64,000 nt of DNA from positions 50,201-114,200 of the IMG/VR virus record IMGVR_UViG_3300044539_000111. One strand, given 5' to 3'. The DNA is from a virus. The position numbers and the translations under genes were made by a program. This document shows positions 6,001-62,036 of this stretch, one piece after another (position 1 is the first letter of the stretch; every line of letters starts with the position of its first letter). The notes beneath the pieces are model-generated. The model ran no database searches. It saw nothing but the letters and a program-made list of their open reading frames with translations, and was not told the origin of the DNA.

Positions 6001-6110
6001 TATGTTTGCTCTTGCATGAGTTTATCATACATGATTTCAGCCAATAAAAAATTTGGCTCCTGCTCAAGAATTTTCTTAAATTCTGGTGAATTTGGATTTA
6101 CACAGCTCAT
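84..6110 (-). CDS. Giant virion cargo/ejection protein (2008 aa) with N-terminal zincin-like metallopeptidase domain
   Basis: HEFAH at 5391-5405, preceded by 'KAFYQAGKVYIV' and followed by 'YMEEAIV'. Hydrophobic helices near the C-terminus (QLVLAKMISMIINMLAMSIG). Last of the three giant genes of the crAss virion-RNAP locus, with a 4-nt overlap with the upstream gene. Confidence 0.8.
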   Translation of the reverse strand: MSCVNPNSPEFKKILEQEPNFLLAEIMYDKLMQEQTYKMYDDTLEFKESTPITKEQELIGQTEDWGFKNPSEVALISDKELSLLIDNPAYNKIEDPVDQQKFNELANAIGEKEAWRDYFETNKVVRPANVVLEKLFKRLEEEEQDFQDTVNESMDLQMPSIDEFINQFEQVVEVENKAKALDVAEKLSKQLNVPYEVITQKELEEKFPNQSYRKAFYQAGKVYIVAGNLTASDVFHEFAHPIVKSMSKQNPELFQKLFDDLAATELGQRIIADLNLDPDLTPGTAAYMEEAIVTSLEAINENEDVAPKSFIQNLFFQIKQFLRKVFGKKIDVSKLNSKTTLADLVKMINYGEEFILDTEFLDKDLMVMFKTDYELLKQQIKDGSAKKTQELMNKFHDVVKLQLSNFKAENDIFKTIEVGLADENREGLLNQAQMILEGLATFGSRNIVIPLDALNITGNTAIDADIISFNNKINSFVQVISTVDEVVDLLNNKLKALAASGVKENNEFDQLFAIMQYNEEWLAKITDWKSEYTTYSLVTDPLTGQQVNPIYDALDELQEKLDAGKRISDSLQIDSVIDVLYDHLNELMTPIKKDYLDQMDSLKKVGSMAAYNKLHAEYYGLTPTDMVEYNRLKNKPEASLTRDEMIKLQELKLATFNSHVISKDALRAKAEGRLGDSHKWNGLFESFMNNQDQIVGGFYSFLMKTFNTIDGNANARRGELLNNLQPLLKAAGYDTHFLGEGKLGKEVGQINRSFKTNNKGESEEFLEWQFLSNFHNYEYDRQLLLDAVKFARQKFNLNKDAKSRDPLKAEFEKAKEALEDFDTKYMNRDYTDEFYQVAARYFKTDSGKLAKAALDDIFDRMRVISENADVNPTNFGKVDALNELWNEYQLLHNIYDFKTGEEKTGISREIAEILTGYRNEISEFYEWEEKENAFELALELLHDELVSKGKHPGSDAYNAVMEEWIKHNTTIAVSENYYINRAALIEERSFLVEPITRINNSFIDVTPMYEQIYGILKPSKDNFNQYNGNDLTPTAQAKIKDIQQTISNLKEQWLNIKGYSPQEMRNFRRIEEYYLENGEFEYDNDQDFYNNFWIDLQKRLANLGIDKDTLDRVREIDKELNGSKLSGLTQQYISNLKAFVETNDAFANIFEDAFKAYDFVDGEFPTSQDIFEAIKDTKFTDALSATSPEFKEWFDRNHYTESVNEFDKVDGHFVGEFTRNRPTAAWQFTMPSEISDYETKSVLGTKIPAEFSPNGYIELNGVPRIPTRAYYRRKVKQEFETAKIERDYVDNNGDLVIATVDNRGNWLPKNLDETDPNAKYVNGTYKKMFSNQRNLWNLLDYLKNKHLDNQKGLDASQKMYLSYPRYRKGDIEEYDKNYFQRKWNRVAETWRGAEDDFEYGIRTNDQQTASYKTLTRPIGGSYKLDISDVSTNIIDKMMDHSYSIEHFKGMRKVNSFANVFENAMTNMYTNPAKTVVDKMLKDSELLEKQDSTQSRRIKNIREIIDKNFKGVTITGFVSGGTDASGGTMFTARVIGGLQRWMSFTSFALDPVKSVRNYVGGKSMMYKKATEGSVYNMKDVALTRGKSASVMGELIAMQYSNKNVSARLQLLDILNAIPGNLKKEIGARGSKTVAQSLFGGSFFYADRKYLSESVPVHQFLAILEHNSFMINGKKTSLDEAIELVDGKIQTVAGVPADMAITYDADGNIKFGKKIQDLMNEHQSFLQKSLGIANEFNEPEVYRSLLGKAAFFLMKFFPGMALDRYQIRTKKGKRGQRRLNYSTRRAELGTYLGIVALANELVSNKGKFWQLDAYSWQAKKGAMQLVLAKMISMIINMLAMSIGFDDDDDGLIDFTWDPNDDGIYSKLKHSTSLPELPLISDARTIKGTNKRFHSENYLKLQTLRLLLVFKKEEDTFFLTNALSTTKDIVTGQSPLFTGGGLATIEDLASSLYATYFTDEPDVYEKAAGPYKFQEKGRDKALNIVLKSMGLSGSLVDAPTTIQRENSDFFN

Positions 6111-15100: not shown

Positions 15101-18100
15101 TAACCTTCTAAAGACTTGATCTATTTCTTTGTCATTCTTTGCCGCATCTTTTAATGCAGTTGCCATATCCATAGCATCCGGCATATTGCGCAAAAGCTTA
15201 GCCACTTTTGCAATAGCATTTTTAACAGGAAGAACTTCCTTAAATCCTAATGCATTCAATTGCACCACACCTTTACCTTGTTCAGAATAAGCAAAGATAG
15301 AATCTAAAAGAGCTTTAGTTCCTTTTTCAATTGTGTCATCAAATAACTGATCGTTACCAGTTCTATCCCACATTGGAACATAAATATCTTCTTCTAAAGC
15401 CTTAGCTTCATATTCATCCTGATATACTTCTTTACCTAAAACTAAATTACTGTAAGACTTTAAGAACAATGGAAGCAATGTTCTTTCAACTTGCTGTCCA
15501 TCATTTTGTTTTTCTTTAATAGCAACATTAAGGTCTGTTAGTTTTCCAAAATTATCAGGCTTAATTGCTTTTTCAAGTAGTTCTTTTTGGAATTTCAATT
15601 TAGTGCTTTCACTTAAATCTCTTGCAGATTTATCTTTTATATCTGCAATAGCAGCAATCTTAACATTTGTTTCAGCAAGTTTTTGTTTAAACCGAGCTAA
15701 AATATATTTACTCATAAGGTTTAGCATCTCTGGATTAGAAACTAAAGTAAATACACCTGCTCCACTTCTAATTGATGTTTCAGAAATGTTTTCTAACTGA
15801 GTAGCCAACTCAATATATTCCTGAGATGATTCAGGATACTGTGTCATTTTTGCTAATAATGTTGTAGCATTTTTTCTATCAGTTGCATTTTGAGAAACAT
15901 TCAAACCTTGTGTAACAAAATCAGACATTACTGATTTCATACTAGACATTACATCATGCATTTCCTCTAATGAAAATGTATCACCTGTTGTAGTTTTTAT
16001 TTCAGATGACATCCATTTAGTTTCTGCATTTTGTATGTTAAACATGTCCGCAGTAAAATCACCTTTAAACAATCTTGTAAACATTGCATCAGTAATACCT
16101 TGTGTTTTGTTAAAAGCTTTTGCTTCAGCAAAACTCATGTTTCCAAATACATTCTTTAAAAGAGAAAGCAATTTTTGAAAAAATGCCATTACTTTGTTGT
16201 TGCTAAATGTAGTTTTTTTACCACCAGCCATAGCAAACTCTCTAAACTTTTCAGCTAAGAACTCTTCTAGTTCTAAATTTGTTGCATCATCGTAAGGCAC
16301 AACTTTAGATACACCCTCTACAGTTACTGTAAAGTATCCTGGAGTTTTTCTAAGTGTGTCATATATTTCTTTTCTTTCCGCAGGTGATAATATTCCATCA
16401 AAATAAGCATGGAACGCTTCATGGTACAAATCTGTAGGTGAAGATCCAAGATATAAATTAATAGAGTTGCCAATAAAGTTTGCCAAATAGTTTGGACCAA
16501 ACTCACTGACTTTGTTTAAGATATTAACATTGACTACATTCTTTAATGGGCTCTTTTCCCACCACTCAGACACACTTTTGTCTTGTTCTTTTGTAGATTG
16601 AAGTAAGTTATTTCTTTGTGGAACTGACCGCCATTTGACATTATCAAAATCACTAGAATTAAAATCAGATTCTTCATTGTCTATCATAGCATCATACCCA
16701 TCTTTAAAAGCAAGGTAAGAGCCTAATCCAATTAATTTATTTTCAGCTGTAGGTACTATGGTTGTATAACCATGTTTTATTACATGTGAACCAATTGAAA
16801 CTTGTTCACCTAAAATAATAACACCATTTTCTAATTTAGTTGGAACTATATAAATTAAATCATTCATAGAAGCACCTGTTCTATTTGCAAAAGATCTTCT
16901 TAATCCAGCAGCCTCAAATAAGTTACCATCAGCATCTGTATAGTATTCACCCAAATAAGCTTCCTCTAATGATTTTTTTGGAGTAGGTTCTTCAGCATTT
17001 AATTTACGGTTTACAGGTTTTCCATATTTTGCATTAGTCCATTCTTTTAATTTTTCTAAAGTCAAAGAAGATGCTTCAATTGGTTTTTGGTTTAAAAAAC
17101 GCAACATCATTACTTTATCTTTGCCTGTCCCTTCATAGAAATATTCAAATGGATTATTAAGCCATGTTTTACCTTTTAATAAATTAGAACTATCAATAAA
17201 AAAATGAATAAGATCTTTTCTTAACCCATTAGCATTTTTATCTGAAACAACTCTGTCTTTAATTTTAAGTTCAGGAGTAGTTAAAATATGGTGCAACAAT
17301 TCTAACTCATCTTCTGTTAAAGTTGATAAAGGTTTTCCAAAAACTCTTTCTTCTTTGTTAGTATTTTGTACAGCTAATACAGGATAAAATTGATTTGTTT
17401 GAGGTGATTGTTTTAATGTAGTAAGCCCATCAGCCGCAGATGTACTAATATTTGATACTTCTGAAAGTGGTGTTTGAATATTTCTATTTAAAGCAATTAT
17501 ACCAATTGAACTTCTTGATAAGTCAATATTCATAAACACAGTAGTACCTGCTTTAGCTTTAGTTAAAGATGCTTCAAAAGATTTAACAAATTTATCAACT
17601 TGTGCTTTTGCTTGTGCTTTTGCTTGTAACTCAACTGTTCCTGATTGTATCAAACTTTGCGCAATCATTCTTTCTTGATACTGTAAAGCTTCTCTATTTG
17701 TTTTTACAGTAAATGCAACAAACTTACCATCCTTATTTAAGTTACCATCAGAATCAAAAGTTGCTACATTGTTGTTAGAATCAATTAAAATTAATACTGG
17801 CAAGTTTGGATCTGTAGTTCCTGTAGTGTTATCAAAGTTTTGTTCACTTTGAATTGCACCAAGTGTAGTAATTTTAAATTTTAAAGCTGCCGCATTTTGC
17901 TTGTTAAGAATATTCCGAGCAACCTTAAACTCCAATTCTTTTCTTGGATCTAAAATGTTTTCAGCATAACTATTTAAAATTGGATTATAAATGGCCTCCT
18001 GATTACTAGTCTTAGCCAACTCCATAGATACTGCTTCAAATCTATCCAGCGGATCTTCTTCTGTAACAACAACATCACTGTTGTTTCCAATAAATCCTCC

Positions 18101-37599: not shown

Positions 37600-40500
37600 T
37601 TATCTGTGAGATAATTGCTGATTACTTGCAGCCAAGCTCACTAAGATTTCTACATTATTGTTTACAGTTCTTCTCAAAATTACTCTATTGTTGAAGTGTC
37701 TGAATTTTTTTCTTTGAAACTCTTGCTTGTCATAGTTTAAGTTTGCGGGATTTAATGTGCGAATATACCCATTATCTTCTGTCATCCAAATTCTTTCTTC
37801 AGCACCACTATACTCACCTCTATCATTTGTAACATCCCAGAATTGATTAAATCTGTACTGTTGTTCCTCTTTAGAGAACAAGATGTTTATGTAATTGGTT
37901 TGAATATTTGGGAATGTCAATAACAATGGTAAATTATTCTTTGGATTAAGATGAAGTTTAAGTACTCCAGAAACTTGTTCTGAATTATACACGGTTGCTT
38001 CATCAAATCCGTGATCTAATACATGAAATCTATCATAACAGTTACGCTCATCATATACATAACTTTCAATGTAGTATTCAACATTACGCATAGTTGCTAC
38101 AGCAAACTTATTGTCTAACTGGAACTCAACCTCAAACGGATAGTCAACACCGTAGTAGTTACAATATTTACTACAAATGTTATTGTGTTTCCAAATACCA
38201 TTATCATTAGTTGTAAGGAATGTATTCTTTGCTCCTAAAGATAAGTCTGGATGCCAATCATGGAATGAAACAAACTCTTCAATTTTTGGATCATAACTTA
38301 AAGTCCATGAACAATCATCAAAGTAAAGGGGATCTCCAGTTTTAGCAATAAAAACACCGTTGATTAAGAATTTAGAACCTCCCATGTACTCTACTGTAAC
38401 AGGTAAGTTTTTCTTTAACCTGTAATCTTTCTTACAGAAATAAACCAAACTGTACTCGTTGTCATAAATAGTCTGACATCCAATTCCAGCAACTGGATTA
38501 TCTGTAACAGAATATGTTGGAAAGTCTTCTAGGAGTTTATATGGTAGATAGATGTTCAACCAGAATCTATTTCCTTTAAGTGAAATCTCTTTTAATCCTC
38601 CCGCATAGCAAAAGATTTTACCTTGATTAAGGTTCATCCAAAACACACCAGCTGGAGTATTGAGTACAGACAATCTGCTTTGACACGATGCATACTCATA
38701 AGAATTTTCAGAATTAGAAAGTTGCTGTAACTGTCTTGCAAATAATCGCCCATCTCCAATAGTAATGTTTGCACCACTTTGAGTTTGCATTTCATCTACA
38801 CCCGGTAACATACCAGGTGCTTGATTCTCAAACAATATTAAAGCAGCTGTTCTATTAATTGACTTTACTGAAGTTACATTACTTTCATAGTCAGCATAAT
38901 TGTTTGGTAAAAATACACGCCACTGATCTTTTTTAGCAAGTGAAATATTATTTGCGGCAGCCGTTTGTGGCAATGAATATAACAATCTTCTAGGATACTT
39001 TGTATAACAAGTTTCAGATAATAATGGATTATAATCTCTTCCTTGCATTACTCCCCATGGAATTTTTTGACTTGCCATAAATGACCATGACAAACTTCTA
39101 TCAATTTGATAATAGTTATCTGCTTTAATCAAGTTCATGTTAAACAGGGTTCTTAAATCAGAAAGCACAGGATAATGTTTTTTAGCATCGGTATCCTGCC
39201 AATCACGCATATCAATATTAAATTCAGACTCTACAAAGAAATCACGAACTCCTGAATTAAATAAATACATAAATGCTCTTTTTAATAAGAACACTCCATT
39301 TTGTCCAGGTAATCTATCAAAACAATGTTTGTCACTTGGTGTAACTAAAGTTGAAAAAAATGTTGAAAGTGATCCAGCAAGAATTGCACTTTGCAAGGCT
39401 CCAGGAACACTTTGAACAAACTCCATTAAATCAAATGGATCTGTATCCATCCAAAATGCAGTCCACTCAAACATCTTTTGTTTGTTGTAATTAAGAATTG
39501 CGCCATCAGGTTGACCGTCTAACCACTGTTGAAAATAAAACAATGTGTTTTTTTCAGAGTATTTTCCAATGTAAGTATCACCTCCAAATAAAGTTGGTGA
39601 ATTAGTTAACGCTATAGGAGTTACACATGAAGAAACCATAAGTTGTCTTATGGATTGCAACTGTCCATACTGATTACGAAGTCTTGTTTTTAAAGCTACA
39701 TAATGAGAAGATGCTCTTCTTGAAAAATTATCAAGATGGCGGTCAGCTGGCATTGCTGACAATCGCGGTGGTCTTGATACGTCAACTATTGCACCTGTAA
39801 TGTTTTCAATGTCTACAGGTGTATCAAACATTACTGTTTCATTTCTGTAAATATGATTTACAATGTAATTAGTTTGGTAATCTTGAACTCCTGGATTTAA
39901 ATATCTAGCATCATTTACTCTACGTCTTCTATTATTTGCATAAGGTGCAGCAAAGTTTTCATATTTGCATAATGCTTGGTACTGTAAAGCAAACTGTTGC
40001 CACGCTCCTAATGATTCAATTAATTTGTAAGTGGTGTCTGCACCTCCTGCTAAGTAACTTAAAAACATAGGATTTCCTAAAGCTAACAATGCAGCTTTTA
40101 ATATACCCGGTCCAGCATCTTGGTCTTTATAAGTTATTTCTAAATAACCGGAAGTAACCCCTGTGCTTGGTATCTGAGCAGATGTTCTTGATGCTGTAAG
40201 TAAAGCTCCTTGAGAAGAACCAGTAATTGATGCTATTCCTGAGTTTTGTCCAGTTAACGCATCACCCATTCCTTGAACCCCAATGGTATTAATTGCAGCA
40301 GCTTGTGCCGCTGTTAATGCAACACCTACAGGTATAATATTTCCTGTTGACGTTGAAGAACCTGCAAAAATTGGATCACTGTCAATTTGGTATCCTCTAT
40401 ACTTAATATCTCTTGAACCAAGCATTTTAGAAATAGCATAACCAAATCCAACTACTATGCCTGTAATAAAAGATACATCTGTAATAAATTTATGACGCGG

Positions 40501-43482: not shown

Positions 43483-44154
43483 TTATCTCAGTATATTTTG
43501 TGAATTATCTCCAGTATCTGGTGGAAGTTTAGCAAGTGTCATTAACTCTTGCTGTGTCATTTGCTCAATTTCAGCAAACATGTAATCTGGAATTGTTACA
43601 TTTCTATCTTGAGCTTGTGTGCAATCAGAATCATTTTCATTACAAAAAGCATCAACTGGTTCTTCAAACATTCCTTCTACAGATACAGCATCCCAAACAA
43701 TATCTGGAAAATATAAGTAACCATTCTTGTACCAATAGTAGTGAGTTTTGTTGTATTTAAAATTTGTTGATTGTGTCATTGCAACATATACAGCAGTTAA
43801 ACATTGTTGAAATACATCACTGCCATCAATTGGCGCAATTGTTCTAAAGATAGGACCGTTACTTCCAGACATTAGTTTTGGAAGTTTCTTTTTAGTTCGC
43901 ATGATTTTGCAACCAGTTTTTATTCTAGCGCAGTCAGCTTCAATTCTGTCTACTTCAATTAACTCAACATACGGCAGTGTTTCAAACAAACTATCATATT
44001 GCATCAATTTGTTTTCTACATCTTGTCTTCTTATCAAAGCTTTTGAATACTTTATAAGCAAACTGTAAATAAAACGGTCAGTTAAAAATGCATCTTCATT
44101 TACTAACTTGAAGACATTTCTGATTCTTGATATGGATTCTCTTATTGTTGTCAT
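43483..44154 (-). CDS. Tail ring protein (223 aa)
   Basis: 'DAFLTDRFIYSLL…CKIMRTKKKLPK…YYWYKNGYLY…VEGMFEEP' resembles crAss ring proteins, and synteny agrees. Confidence 0.7.
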   Translation of the reverse strand: MTTIRESISRIRNVFKLVNEDAFLTDRFIYSLLIKYSKALIRRQDVENKLMQYDSLFETLPYVELIEVDRIEADCARIKTGCKIMRTKKKLPKLMSGSNGPIFRTIAPIDGSDVFQQCLTAVYVAMTQSTNFKYNKTHYYWYKNGYLYFPDIVWDAVSVEGMFEEPVDAFCNENDSDCTQAQDRNVTIPDYMFAEIEQMTQQELMTLAKLPPDTGDNSQNILR

Positions 44155-44156
44155 GG

Positions 44157-44648
44157 TTATATGTTAATATCAACAGTAGAATTATAGTTTACAGAAACGC
44201 ATCTGGCCCAATGCATTCTAAAATATGCACTAGCTTTTCTTCTAAACTGCTGAAGAGGATTAAATGAAAACATGTTAGCATTCTTCACCATAGTTCTTTT
44301 GGTGTGGTTAATATACACAATTCGCATCATGTTGTTATCTGTATCCCAATTTTTATGGTAAACGGTTTTTCCTGCTAGTTTTGAATTAGCATAGTCAATA
44401 GACTTGCCTTTTGCTTTTCCAGCATTATTAATAAACACAGCACCAATATTTTCAGGAAGTATTACTCCATAAATATTAGTCATTGTTTCTTCCGCCATGT
44501 TTGAATTAAATGCTCTCATGATCTTTATGATTGCAGACTTATCTAAATTGTACTTTGGGTGCAACTTATTAAAGTCTTTAACTTCTTTATAGTTAATAAC
44601 TTTCCCTTTTTTCTCAGTTACTCTTGGTTTATTTAAGTCAACCTCCAT
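44157..44648 (-). CDS. IHF/HU-like DNA-binding protein of crAss-like phages (163 aa)
   Basis: Start corrected to ATG 44648 because the longer track ORF runs through a terminator and overlaps the previous gene. Basic protein with 'IIKIMRAFN…GVILPENIGAVFI…IDYANSK…VYHKNWDTD…FSFNP', at the usual IHF-like gene position. Confidence 0.65.
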   Translation of the reverse strand: MEVDLNKPRVTEKKGKVINYKEVKDFNKLHPKYNLDKSAIIKIMRAFNSNMAEETMTNIYGVILPENIGAVFINNAGKAKGKSIDYANSKLAGKTVYHKNWDTDNNMMRIVYINHTKRTMVKNANMFSFNPLQQFRRKASAYFRMHWARCVSVNYNSTVDINI

Positions 44649-44650
44649 AT

Positions 44651-44663
44651 AATATACTAATTT
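44651..44663 (-). promoter_or_regulatory. Variant late promoter motif AAATTAGTATATT
   Basis: Lies downstream of a terminator and 2 nt before the ATG at 44648. One mismatch to AAATTTGTATATT at 51318-51330. Confidence 0.4.
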
Positions 44664-44689
44664 ATCCTCAAAAATACAAATTAAATAAT

Positions 44690-44717
44690 AAAACAAACCC
44701 CAGATTGCTCCGGGGTT
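44690..44717 (-). terminator. Rho-independent terminator
   Basis: AACCCCGGA-GCAA-UCUGGGGUU (9 bp stem, GNRA loop) followed by UGUUUU. Confidence 0.8.
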
Positions 44718-44760
44718 CATCCTAGTCAGCCACATAAACCAACCTTCTGTGACATTTTTT
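44690..44760 (-). ncRNA. Candidate 3'-UTR-derived small RNA (hairpin with GGUUGG loop plus terminator)
   Basis: GUCACA/UGUGGC stem enclosing GAAGGUUGGUUUA, followed by a terminator. The loop region is complementary to leaders at 58598-58607 and 61919-61926. Expression is not shown. Confidence 0.35.
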
Positions 44761-45849
44761 CTAACACACTGGTGTAGGTGTCGGTATTGTTGCAACGCAT
44801 GGTCCTATAAATCCGGTTAATCCATCTAAAATAATCCAAAATCCTCCAATTTCACTTGAATCATTTGCATTAATACTAATTGGATATTCTTCACTTGCTT
44901 TAAAAAACGGTTGTGCGTTTTGATTACTTGATGAAACACTGTCATGCACATTTGTTGCAAATTTAAAATCTGTAACTTGATCTCCTTGTGTCACATTAGA
45001 AACTACATAATTTAATGCAGATGTACTAAATGCTCCTGGGTTACATCCTGAAACAAAACTTTCTTCTAAATCTGCAAGACATCCCCATGACAACGTGCCT
45101 GTTGGTGAAATACCAACATTTGCAAAAGAAGTTAATACTGTATTGCAACTGCCTGTATCCATAGCTCTCCAGTTTAATCTCCATCCAAGACTATAACTGC
45201 CATCTAGAACATATCCGCTAGGTAAAACTGCAGCTGGAATTACACTAACTCCTTTATTAAAAGTTAAACCTCCAGATGTGCTTATATTAACTCCACCTAT
45301 TCCAGTATATGGTTTTTTACCATGTGCTGGTAATGATGATGATACAACACCCTCATAAGTGTTTGTGCCTGATTTATATAAAAATGTAACAACATCACCA
45401 ACTTTTGTATCATCTTCCAAAGGAATTACCACACTGCCTCTAAAATGTACAACATTTCCAATACGTCTTACTTGCGGTCTTTTAACAAGCATAGTAGGAT
45501 CAGTAGAATAATGATTAAAACCAAGTAAATCTACCCACCCTGTATCTTGCACATTTGCAGTTAATACACCTGCAGTATAACTAAGATCCACAGTTGTTGT
45601 GTCATCAACAGTTGTAGGTACTCCCGGAATACCTTGTGCACCAGCTGCGCCCGTGCTTCCAGCAGATCCTGTTGCACCACTCAAACCTTGCGGTCCTTGA
45701 CTTCCTTGTGGTCCAGGTGCGCCTTGTAGACCTTGCAGACCTTGTGGTCCTACGGGACCTTGTGGTCCTGCCGGTCCAACAAATCCTCTTGGGCCTTTTA
45801 ATTTTATTTCATTGCTTTTACATTCACAATTTCCTTTACAAGTACACAT
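44761..45849 (-). CDS. Collagen-repeat fibre protein (362 aa)
   Basis: Cys-rich N-terminus [10 protein letters not shown] and 20 Gly-X-Y triplets. The C-terminal 'DTGWVDL…[13 protein letters not shown]…AAVLPSGY' is a fibre tip-type domain. Confidence 0.8.
45616..45795 (-). repeat. Collagen Gly-X-Y repeat, 20 triplets
   Basis: [12 protein letters not shown] … GIP GVP read directly from the translation. Confidence 0.95.
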
Positions 45850-58592: not shown

Positions 58593-58621
58593 TTTTTGGT
58601 TGGTTTAATATTAATGACTGA

Positions 58622-58629
58622 CAAATATA
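58622..58629 (-). promoter_or_regulatory. Promoter-like element TATATTTG
   Basis: Matches the Bacteroidota -7 consensus TAnnTTTG and contains the TATATT core. Lies just after a terminator and about 30 nt before ATG 58592. Confidence 0.5.
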
Positions 58630-58631
58630 AT

Positions 58632-58661
58632 AAAAAGAGGCAGACGCATAGCGGCCACCTC
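58632..58661 (-). terminator. Rho-independent terminator
   Basis: GAGGUGGCCGC-UAU-GCGUCUGCCUC (one mismatch, G-U pairs) followed by UUUUU. Confidence 0.75.
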
Positions 58662-58672
58662 AATTTACCTTT

Positions 58673-58930
58673 CTAGGATAATGATGCAATTAAAGCATTT
58701 ATTTTTGCTGTAATAGCTGCAAGTTTTGTGTTAACATCTGCTTGAAGACCAAGAACAGTTGTTTGACTAATGTTTGTGTATGCTGGTAATGCACCAACAG
58801 CAGCAACATCTGCTTTCATTAAACGAACTGCTTCATTGATATGAGCAATACGAGCTAATGCTGATTCCGCATAAGCTGATCTTTGTAATACTGGATCTGG
58901 GCTAGATACCCCAACTTTGATTGTTGACAT
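58673..58930 (-). CDS. Small putative capsid-associated protein (85 aa)
   Basis: Directly follows the MCP, bracketed by hairpins. Helical/coiled-coil C-terminus. Confidence 0.55.
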   Translation of the reverse strand: MSTIKVGVSSPDPVLQRSAYAESALARIAHINEAVRLMKADVAAVGALPAYTNISQTTVLGLQADVNTKLAAITAKINALIASLS

Positions 58931-58943
58931 GATTTTAAAGTTT

Positions 58944-58971
58944 AAAAGGGAGCCAAACTAATGACTCCCTT
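58944..58971 (-). terminator. Hairpin / leaky terminator after the MCP gene
   Basis: AAGGGAGUCA-UUAGUU-UGGCUCCCUU followed by only a short U run. Confidence 0.65.
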
Positions 58972-58986
58972 GTTAATAAAATATGA

Positions 58987-61914: not shown

Positions 61915-61943
61915 CTTTGTTGGTTTTAGTTCTGACTATAAAT

Positions 61944-61959
61944 AATATAAGCAAATTTA
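61944..61959 (-). promoter_or_regulatory. Promoter-like motif TAAATTTGCTTATATT
   Basis: About 30 nt upstream of the scaffold ATG. Contains both TAnnTTTG and TTTG-N2-TATATT. Confidence 0.5.
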
Positions 61960-61974
61960 TTCAATTGTAAACAA

Positions 61975-62036
61975 TATATGTTTAACTATTTTTGATTAGC
62001 TGAAAAGTTTTTTCCATACTATAGTTAAAACATATA
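61975..62036. repeat. Imperfect inverted repeat between the portal and scaffold genes
   Basis: tatatgtttaactat (61975-61989) pairs with atagttaaaacatata (62021-62036), with one bulged base and a 31 nt spacer. Confidence 0.7.

Follow-up and report, generated by a model that had tools for sequence, protein, structure and literature searches.

Base-pairing small RNAs can be derived from the 3' untranslated regions (3' UTRs) of bacterial messages, as for CpxQ, SroC and DapZ, and among phages the classical antisense RNAs are lambda OOP, P22 sar and the P4 CI RNA, of which OOP and sar overlap their target, being made from the other strand. In Bacteroides thetaiotaomicron, GibS and MasB are base-pairing small RNAs of a phylum that is poor in Shine-Dalgarno (SD) sequences and lacks Hfq. 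To our knowledge, almost nothing is known of post-transcriptional control in crAss-like phages, or of the regulation of translation in hosts that do not use Shine-Dalgarno pairing.

In the Bacteroidetes, mRNA structure close to the start codon and upstream adenines tune translation, without SD pairing (PMC6847099). In phi14:2, a crAss-like phage with a Bacteroidota host, the host RNA polymerase transcribes late genes from conserved tripartite middle/late promoters, one of which precedes the gene between the portal and capsid genes, and abundant long early intergenic non-coding RNAs are made whose role is not known (bioRxiv 10.1101/2020.03.07.982082). No element of the kind considered here is mentioned in the text of that preprint. 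A hairpin RNA with an anti-leader loop has not previously been described in crAss-like phages, as far as literature searches show; the preliminary description of this locus knew of no such report, and the searches likewise found none. For the hairpin that is the subject of this analysis, the balance of evidence tips slightly towards an antisense RNA that is carried in a 3' UTR and pairs in trans with SD-less initiation regions.

The gap downstream of the fibre-like gene

The stretch of DNA that was analysed, referred to as the window, makes up the right-hand 64 kb of a virus record of 114.2 kb from a freshwater phage, and its gene content is crAss-like, with portal, major capsid protein and fibre-like genes as well as three giant proteins. 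The minus strand carries all of the genes in the window, as judged by the list of open reading frames (ORFs). A gap of 112 nt separates a 362-aa fibre-like gene from the next gene, of 163 aa, which starts at 44648, and the hairpin lies 8 nt past the stop codon of the fibre-like gene, in its 3' UTR (Table 1).

Table 1. Features of the hairpin element and of the leaders complementary to it, in window coordinates
Feature	Position	Strand	Basis or remark
Stop codon (TAG) of the 362-aa fibre-like gene	44761..44763	-	ORF list; gene with PHROG tail-fibre matches
Order within the gap: A-run, GUCACA, GAAGGUUGGUUUA, UGUGGC, UGACUAG, terminator/U-tract, promoter-like TATTTTTG		-	
Hairpin 5' arm GUCACA	44748..44753	-	Sequence and RNAfold; covariation in relatives
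Hairpin loop GAAGGUUGGUUUA	44735..44747	-	Open in the minimum-energy fold; antisense to the AACCAAC leader box
Hairpin 3' arm UGUGGC	44729..44734	-	Sequence and fold; covariation in relatives
Single-stranded linker CUGACUAG	44722..44729	-	Antisense to (CUA)GUCAG of target leaders; alignment A1
Intrinsic terminator CCCCGGA-GCAA-UCUGGGG (44715-44698) and U-tract	44687..44715	-	Fold and terminator scan
Leader box UAAACCAACC, -15..-6 of the 330-aa gene (ATG 58592)	58598..58607	-	10-nt complement of the loop
GUCAG adjoining promoter-like TATATTTG of the 330-aa gene	58618..58622	-	Complement of CUGAC in the element linker
Leader box AAACCAAC, -12..-5 of the 426-aa gene (ATG 61914)	61919..61926	-	8-nt complement of the loop
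UAGUCAG in the leader of the 426-aa gene	61932..61938	-	7-nt complement of CUGACUA in the element linker

The element folds with an energy of -28.8 kcal/mol (z -2.3), leaving the 13-nt loop unpaired (RNAfold). The second hairpin of the gap has the G+C-rich stem and the U-tract of an intrinsic (Rho-independent) terminator, with pairing that is held through sequence change, and a terminator scan returned one site at the gap against 0.2 expected. When positions 44000-45500 were scanned with Rfam, no family reached its gathering threshold, the best overlapping matches being the rimP leader, at 21 bits for a threshold of 47, and GlsR20, at 16.8 bits for one of 100, each with an E value above 1. A BLAST search of the region against deposited phage genomes gave only one match, of 114 nt at 75% identity, in uncultured records. 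A small ORF or leader peptide in the gap (ATGTCACAG..., beginning ATG TCA CAG and 9 codons long here) was considered and rejected, as neither its start nor its frame is conserved: the ATG is missing in G002, G003 and G005, and the frame is shifted by indels in L094 and L097.

The gene at the position of the 362-aa fibre gene is a different one in close relatives (L104 and the G001-G005 records). Because the fibre gene upstream is swapped among close relatives, the hairpin marks a constant 3' boundary for a fibre cassette that is hypervariable. Furthermore, the variable coding sequence ends only 8 nt upstream and there is no conserved promoter, so that the element must be transcribed as a 3' UTR. 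Across positions 44761-45849 of the window, unrelated fibre-like genes substitute for one another in otherwise close relatives (L104, L097, L101, L102, L106 and L107).

On the other side of the element, between the terminator and the 163/193-aa gene (44649-44686, minus strand), two boxes are conserved throughout the clade (also in L094-L108 and L226-L261). The first, AATTTGTATTTTTGA, matches the Bacteroidota -7 motif TAnnTTTG, and the second, TTAGTATATTAT, touches the ATG of the 163/193-aa gene in most records and lies at most about 10 nt away in the others. The second box is nearly invariant even where the 163/193-aa protein is less than 50% identical, and may be a very short leader or some other signal.

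Six metatranscriptome runs contain 5-11% of the sampled words from this sequence. The contigs (Logan) of four of these runs, which are assembled and carry neither RNA ends nor strand, are mostly 88-95% identical to the window and thus derive from relatives; one such contig spans 44494-44760.

Complementarity to leaders in this genome

Within the window, GGTTGGTTTA occurs exactly two times, at 44735-44744 on the minus strand and at 58598-58607 on the plus strand. The preliminary description had recorded the stem GUCACA/UGUGGC with its enclosed loop and the GNRA-loop terminator that follows, and had matched the loop over 10 nt to the leader of the 330-aa gene and over 8 nt to that of the 426-aa gene; all of these coordinates proved correct. 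It had seen the box in no other leader that it read, which is accurate inside the window, but two further sense copies are found outside it. Nor is the box specific to the two head genes with which it was first associated, as it is a leader motif found clade-wide and, in this genome, is also present at an 88-aa and a 134-aa gene, both of which lie outside the head module.

The sense copy of the composite motif at the 88-aa gene start (genome positions 6029-6049, minus strand, outside the window) lies inside the coding sequence, where it is retained at synonymous sites. Of 12 relatives, 11 conserve it, together with a choice of codons not usual in an AT-rich genome. The sense copy at the 134-aa gene precedes ATGATG (genome position 40418, plus strand, outside the window), and the fact that this motif is retained despite a reading frame that differs among relatives makes it a signal at the nucleotide level, and probably a leader. 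The first 9 'codons' of the 134-aa ORF (ATGTCAGAAAACACCAACCAAAAAAGC; G000 40416-40445, plus strand; L162 517-546) are conserved as nucleotides and are read in other frames in G002 and G006. Judging from this pattern, the ORF probably starts at the downstream ATGATG, the preceding stretch resembling the GUCAG..AACCAAC kind of leader. In this genome (G000), each of the four sense copies of the composite motif lies at a gene start and follows local transcription, the sole antisense copy being the hairpin. The target leaders are devoid of a Shine-Dalgarno sequence, and SD-less initiation is suggested by these leaders together with the TAnnTTTG-like promoters.

In one genome alone, the match between loop and leaders is weak evidence. 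Shuffled loops compared with 119 leaders gave a complement of at least 10 nt in 1.3% of trials, and at least 10 nt plus a second leader of at least 8 nt in 0.6%; for random genomic 13-mers the corresponding values were 5% and 3.3%. The match has a P of about 0.006-0.03 and could be chance, a caution already voiced in the preliminary description and one with which these unconvincing statistics agree. Partners are easily found for a low-complexity A/C box and a G/U-rich loop. When the 119 leaders of G000 were ranked by duplex and cofold energy, the four motif-bearing genes stood at 3, 5, 6 and 18, with cofold ranks of 3 and 5 of 119 for the 330-aa and 426-aa leaders and two unrelated genes ahead of them. 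The motif-bearing genes are thus high but not unique by energy, and the ranking is not the main evidence; given the weak single-genome statistics, the case rests on relatives. Among the two strongest predicted duplexes, at -15.6 kcal/mol, is that with the leader of a 54-aa ORF (UCGGUCAUAUAAACCCUU; G000 16131-16175, plus strand, outside the window), which may be either chance or an additional target.

Conservation of the hairpin among relatives

Relatives were gathered by protein-guided and pattern-guided scans of IMG/VR, and a covariance model (R1), built from 27 distinct element sequences, finds exactly one copy per record in 43 of 50 related records. All 41 of the copies inspected (on both sides, save for the neighbouring ORF in G011 and the downstream gene in G035) follow the stop codon of the last fibre-like gene, and are themselves followed by a terminator, a promoter and the 163/193-aa gene, next to which lies the gene for the 223-aa virion protein.

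Over the 27 distinct sequences, stem pairs are kept in 91% of cells, as compared with 25-56% when the partners are slid. The third pair switches between C-G and U-A, three pairs are altered on both sides, and wobble-compatible changes are found elsewhere; the covariation score of the stem was matched by none of 500 shuffles, and RNAalifold recovers the same helix. By comparison with the stem, the loop core UUGGUU is invariant in all 27 sequences (alignments A1 and A3). In near relatives the element as a whole is almost invariant, with the CUGAC of the linker invariant and the UAG nearly so (alignment A1). The terminator varies in sequence while its pairing is held, as in AACCCCGGAG/CTGGGGTT, TTGGTCCTGGG/CCGGGGCCAA, AAGCCCGA/TCGGGCTT and CAACCCTTGAG/TTGAGGGTTG, and the flanking proteins diverge, the 163-aa protein down to 34-47% identity. 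In these alignments the terminator is under constraint for structure only, and the loop is under selection for its sequence.

This pattern bears on the alternative that the complementarity is due to chance, or that the hairpin is a decaying inverted copy of a leader and has no function. The weakness of the single-genome statistics would be in keeping with such an explanation, which nevertheless has to accommodate 43 records with one copy each, the same location at every one of the 41 sites inspected, and a loop core that stays invariant and a stem that covaries while the terminator and the flanking proteins diverge. In addition, the diverged terminators argue against conservation that stems from recent recombination of one block. 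Absence of function is accordingly scarcely credible.

In many far-clade copies (L228-L244) the stem is followed directly by (U)AACAAC, which could pair with the UUGUU of the loop, and alternative folds of this kind are found in G020 and G021. A pseudoknot between loop and 3' flank in the far clade (UUGUU with AACAA) was set aside, as conservation of the flank is insufficient for a decision. An inversion of the segment between the inverted copies was rejected, given that no joint was present in the metatranscriptome contigs, no recombinase was noticed, and the repeats are too short.

Among the cultured relatives checked, no phage with the element was found. The gene order of Flavobacterium phage FpV4 differs, and Leptolyngbya phage Lbo-JY46 (PP438436.1, L277) has a homologue of the 330-aa protein with 29% identity whose leader is CA-rich and without the box. 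Of the deposited cultured phages, Lbo-JY46 alone has a detectable homologue of this protein, and because it infects a cyanobacterium, the host range of the wider 330-aa protein family is not limited to Bacteroidota. A search of 13 distant genomes with the pattern GTTGGTTGGTT was uninformative.

The leader box and GUCAG across the clade

The strict box AACCAAC is found within 30 nt upstream of the start of the 330-aa gene in 57 of 80 related loci, often twice, and down to 45% protein identity, and at the 426-aa gene in 14 of 17 related loci. In G013, the box is present in 14 sense as opposed to 3 antisense copies, with 3 and 3 for controls, and this enrichment on the coding strand in distant genomes indicates that its behaviour is that of a late-gene leader or translation signal.

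In near relatives, GUCAG is positioned a few bases upstream of the box in the leaders of both head genes. The leaders of the 330-aa gene read TTTGTCAG, or CTAGTCAG in G001 and G004, and those of the 426-aa gene read TAGTCAG; the CUAGUCAG of the G001 and G004 leaders is complementary to the linker of the element. With the loop complementary to the box, and the linker CUGAC(UAG) mirroring (CUA)GUCAG, the complementarity is bipartite in near relatives. In the far clade, the leaders have no GUCAG and most copies of the element are missing the CUGAC flank.

Upstream of the 426-aa gene (61932-61975, minus strand), a conserved promoter-like motif of three blocks was read in loci L011-L023 and L115-L118, consisting of TTTA(C/G/A)A, TTTGCTTATATTA and, after 5-6 variable bases, AGTCAG. 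It recalls the 'extended tripartite' middle/late promoters of phi14:2, which also precede the phi14:2 gene between portal and capsid. Upstream of the 330-aa gene, in the interval 58636-58983, metatranscriptome contigs of relatives (runs X1 and X4) join 58635/58636 to 58983/58985 through 50-68 other letters, so that some relatives are without the 85-aa ORF (58673-58930) between the capsid and 330-aa genes.

At the 330-aa and 426-aa genes the motif adjoins boxes that resemble promoters, which raises the possibility that it is a site in DNA, where a phage protein that binds double strands, for instance a late regulator, would read GTCAG..AAACCAACC in either orientation and the copy in the gap would be an extra site; an extended tripartite motif is, moreover, a feature of the phi14:2 middle/late promoters (bioRxiv 10.1101/2020.03.07.982082). 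The spacing from GTCAG to the box, however, ranges from 2 to 11 nt, and the position of the motif relative to promoter and start codon varies, to the extent that it falls inside the coding sequence in the 88-aa gene. The orientation of the copies is also difficult to reconcile with a site that is read either way, as the four sense copies follow local transcription and the hairpin copy alone is inverted. Lastly, the stem around the inverted copy covaries, which points to structure at the level of RNA. A role in DNA is for these reasons improbable.

Loop and box in different clades

If the loop pairs with the box as the antisense reading supposes, the two should change together. The loop is of three types, near (GA)AGGUUGGUUU(A), mid GUUGGUUGGUUUCUU and far G(G)UUUGUUGGUUUC, and in all 32 genomes where both partners are readable it forms 7-11 contiguous Watson-Crick pairs with the leader of that genome's own 330-aa gene. 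Pairing with this leader is greater within than across clades (9.0 vs 7.7 for near loops, and 10.1 vs 9.4 for far loops).

The start of the 88-aa gene provides the clearest instance. Here the box is AAACCAACC in the near clade, where the loop is AGGUUGGUUU; AACCAACCAA in the mid clade (G029 and G034), where the loop is UUGGUUGGUU; and AAACCAACAA in the far clade (G015 and G018), where the loop is UUGUUGGUUU. In each of the three clades the box is the complement of that clade's own loop, with a C:G to A:U switch. The mid-clade box had been predicted from the loop in advance, and the mid-clade gene, which was missed by protein search, was located through the pattern AACCAACCAA. G034 has four sense AACCAACCAA sites, all of them at gene starts, and two of these complement the whole 12-nt loop.

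Presence and absence are also linked. Seven records are without the hairpin (G010, G017, G041, G044, G045, G048 and G038), and in six of these the strict AACCAAC is missing from the leader of the 330-aa gene, the exception being G038, where the box is kept; among the 43 records with the hairpin, the strict box is present in this leader in 41, the other two reading AACCAAU. The fit is not perfect, as 8 of the 13 near-clade leaders of the 330-aa gene read AACCAACA against a GG loop, and the mid-clade leaders of this gene pair over 8 nt only. Covariation of loop and box is at the level of clades, reflects few independent events, and is imperfect. A check of related genomes for co-occurrence and compensatory changes had been proposed in the preliminary description, and its outcome is positive, given the hairpin in 43 of 50 records, the matched types of loop and box, and their joint absence. 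The same description had put forward a 3'-UTR-derived sRNA or a contact in trans between mRNAs, through which transcription of the fibre operon would be coupled to translation of head-assembly factors. Of that proposal, the origin in a 3' UTR stands, as there is no room for a promoter, and the pairing has gained comparative support; the limitation to two head genes does not stand.

The same observations can be set against an explanation in which the hairpin is recognised by protein or is purely structural, serving at the 3' end as a site for an RNA-binding protein of phage or host, as a processing site, or as a stabiliser of the fibre mRNA, with the complementarity incidental. Conservation of the loop sequence is what protein sites display, chance complementarity of this extent is not rare in an A-rich set of leaders, the energy-based ranking of targets is not unique, and the box, as a leader motif of general occurrence, is present without the hairpin in G038. 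Left unexplained are the three loop variants that match three variants of the 88-aa box, the CUGAC flank that mirrors GUCAG in the same leaders, and the joint loss of hairpin and strict box. A motif of this kind is consequently unlikely, though it deserves to be taken seriously.

It is also conceivable that the loop mimics a host RNA that reads AACCAAC, such as a segment of rRNA, and acts as a decoy or competitor, in which case box and loop would both track the host. The box does resemble a translation signal in its sense-strand enrichment where late genes start, and loop and box shift together between clades whose hosts may differ. Nothing, however, supports such a host partner, and the AACCAAC box is not known to have a complement in the 3' tail of Bacteroidia 16S rRNA. 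Mimicry of host RNA is accordingly very improbable.

A possible mechanism

For an antisense RNA carried in the 3' UTR, the following sequence of events can be envisaged. The element would act either within the fibre mRNA or after processing to a fragment of about 70 nt that ends at the terminator, with the 6-7 bp stem displaying the G/U-rich loop and a short single-stranded linker preceding the terminator. The loop, joined by the linker in near relatives, would pair in trans with the A/C-rich, SD-less initiation regions of the 330-, 426-, 88- and 134-aa genes, and this pairing would convert an unstructured leader to a duplex. Because structure in the start region tunes initiation of the Bacteroidia type, the duplex should lower translation initiation or alter the stability and decay of the mRNA, repression being the presumed effect. 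The output of the target genes would then be set by the amount of fibre-operon transcript that has accumulated. One difficulty is that head-gene mRNAs are abundant, and the 3' UTR of a single fibre mRNA may not be plentiful enough to titrate them.

On the comparative evidence, the chances are about even that an aquatic crAss-like clade runs a riboregulatory circuit, in which an anti-leader loop co-evolves with an SD-independent AACCAAC box at several gene starts. Such a circuit would provide Crassvirales with their first described trans-acting regulatory RNA, and would give a direct view of antisense switching of SD-less initiation regions. If the pairing is real, expression of the tail fibre would be tied to a handful of head-module and other genes, in a compact model of antisense control; if it is not, the hairpin is still a new conserved RNA motif, and the box still a candidate translation signal. 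The clade offers a single-copy hairpin family, an A/C-rich box and natural pairs of loop and box variants.

Comparison with known systems

The element has the sequence attributes of a trans-acting small RNA derived from a 3' UTR. It occupies the 3' end of a coding transcript and is closed by the intrinsic terminator of that transcript, its seed is conserved and accessible, with the loop unpaired in folds and UUGGUU invariant, and complementarity between seed and targets is accompanied by compensatory change, albeit at the level of clades and imperfectly. By these attributes the element resembles, and may belong with, the base-pairing small RNAs derived from 3' UTRs. As with CpxQ, SroC and DapZ, it is situated at the end of an mRNA whose terminator it shares, presents a single-stranded seed for several initiation regions, and has no promoter of its own. 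Unlike those RNAs, it is phage-encoded and aimed at the phage's own genes, its seed is in a hairpin loop, and its predicted partner is an A/C-rich, SD-less box and not an SD region.

With lambda OOP, P22 sar and the P4 CI RNA, the element shares the predicted property of being a short phage RNA that acts by base pairing on phage messages. A cis-encoded antisense RNA of the OOP/sar type was nonetheless rejected, since its targets inside the window share the strand of the element, at distances of 14 and 17 kb from it; in contrast to OOP and sar, its pairing would be in trans and imperfect. GibS and MasB provide a parallel for trans-acting RNAs that pair at or near start codons, as is predicted for the element, but these are host RNAs with their own promoters and have no sequence relation to it. 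Finally, the phage considered here is similar to phi14:2 in being crAss-like and in having conserved promoter-like motifs before late genes, whereas the non-coding RNAs of phi14:2 are long and early, come from the other genome arm, and have no described antisense relation to leaders.
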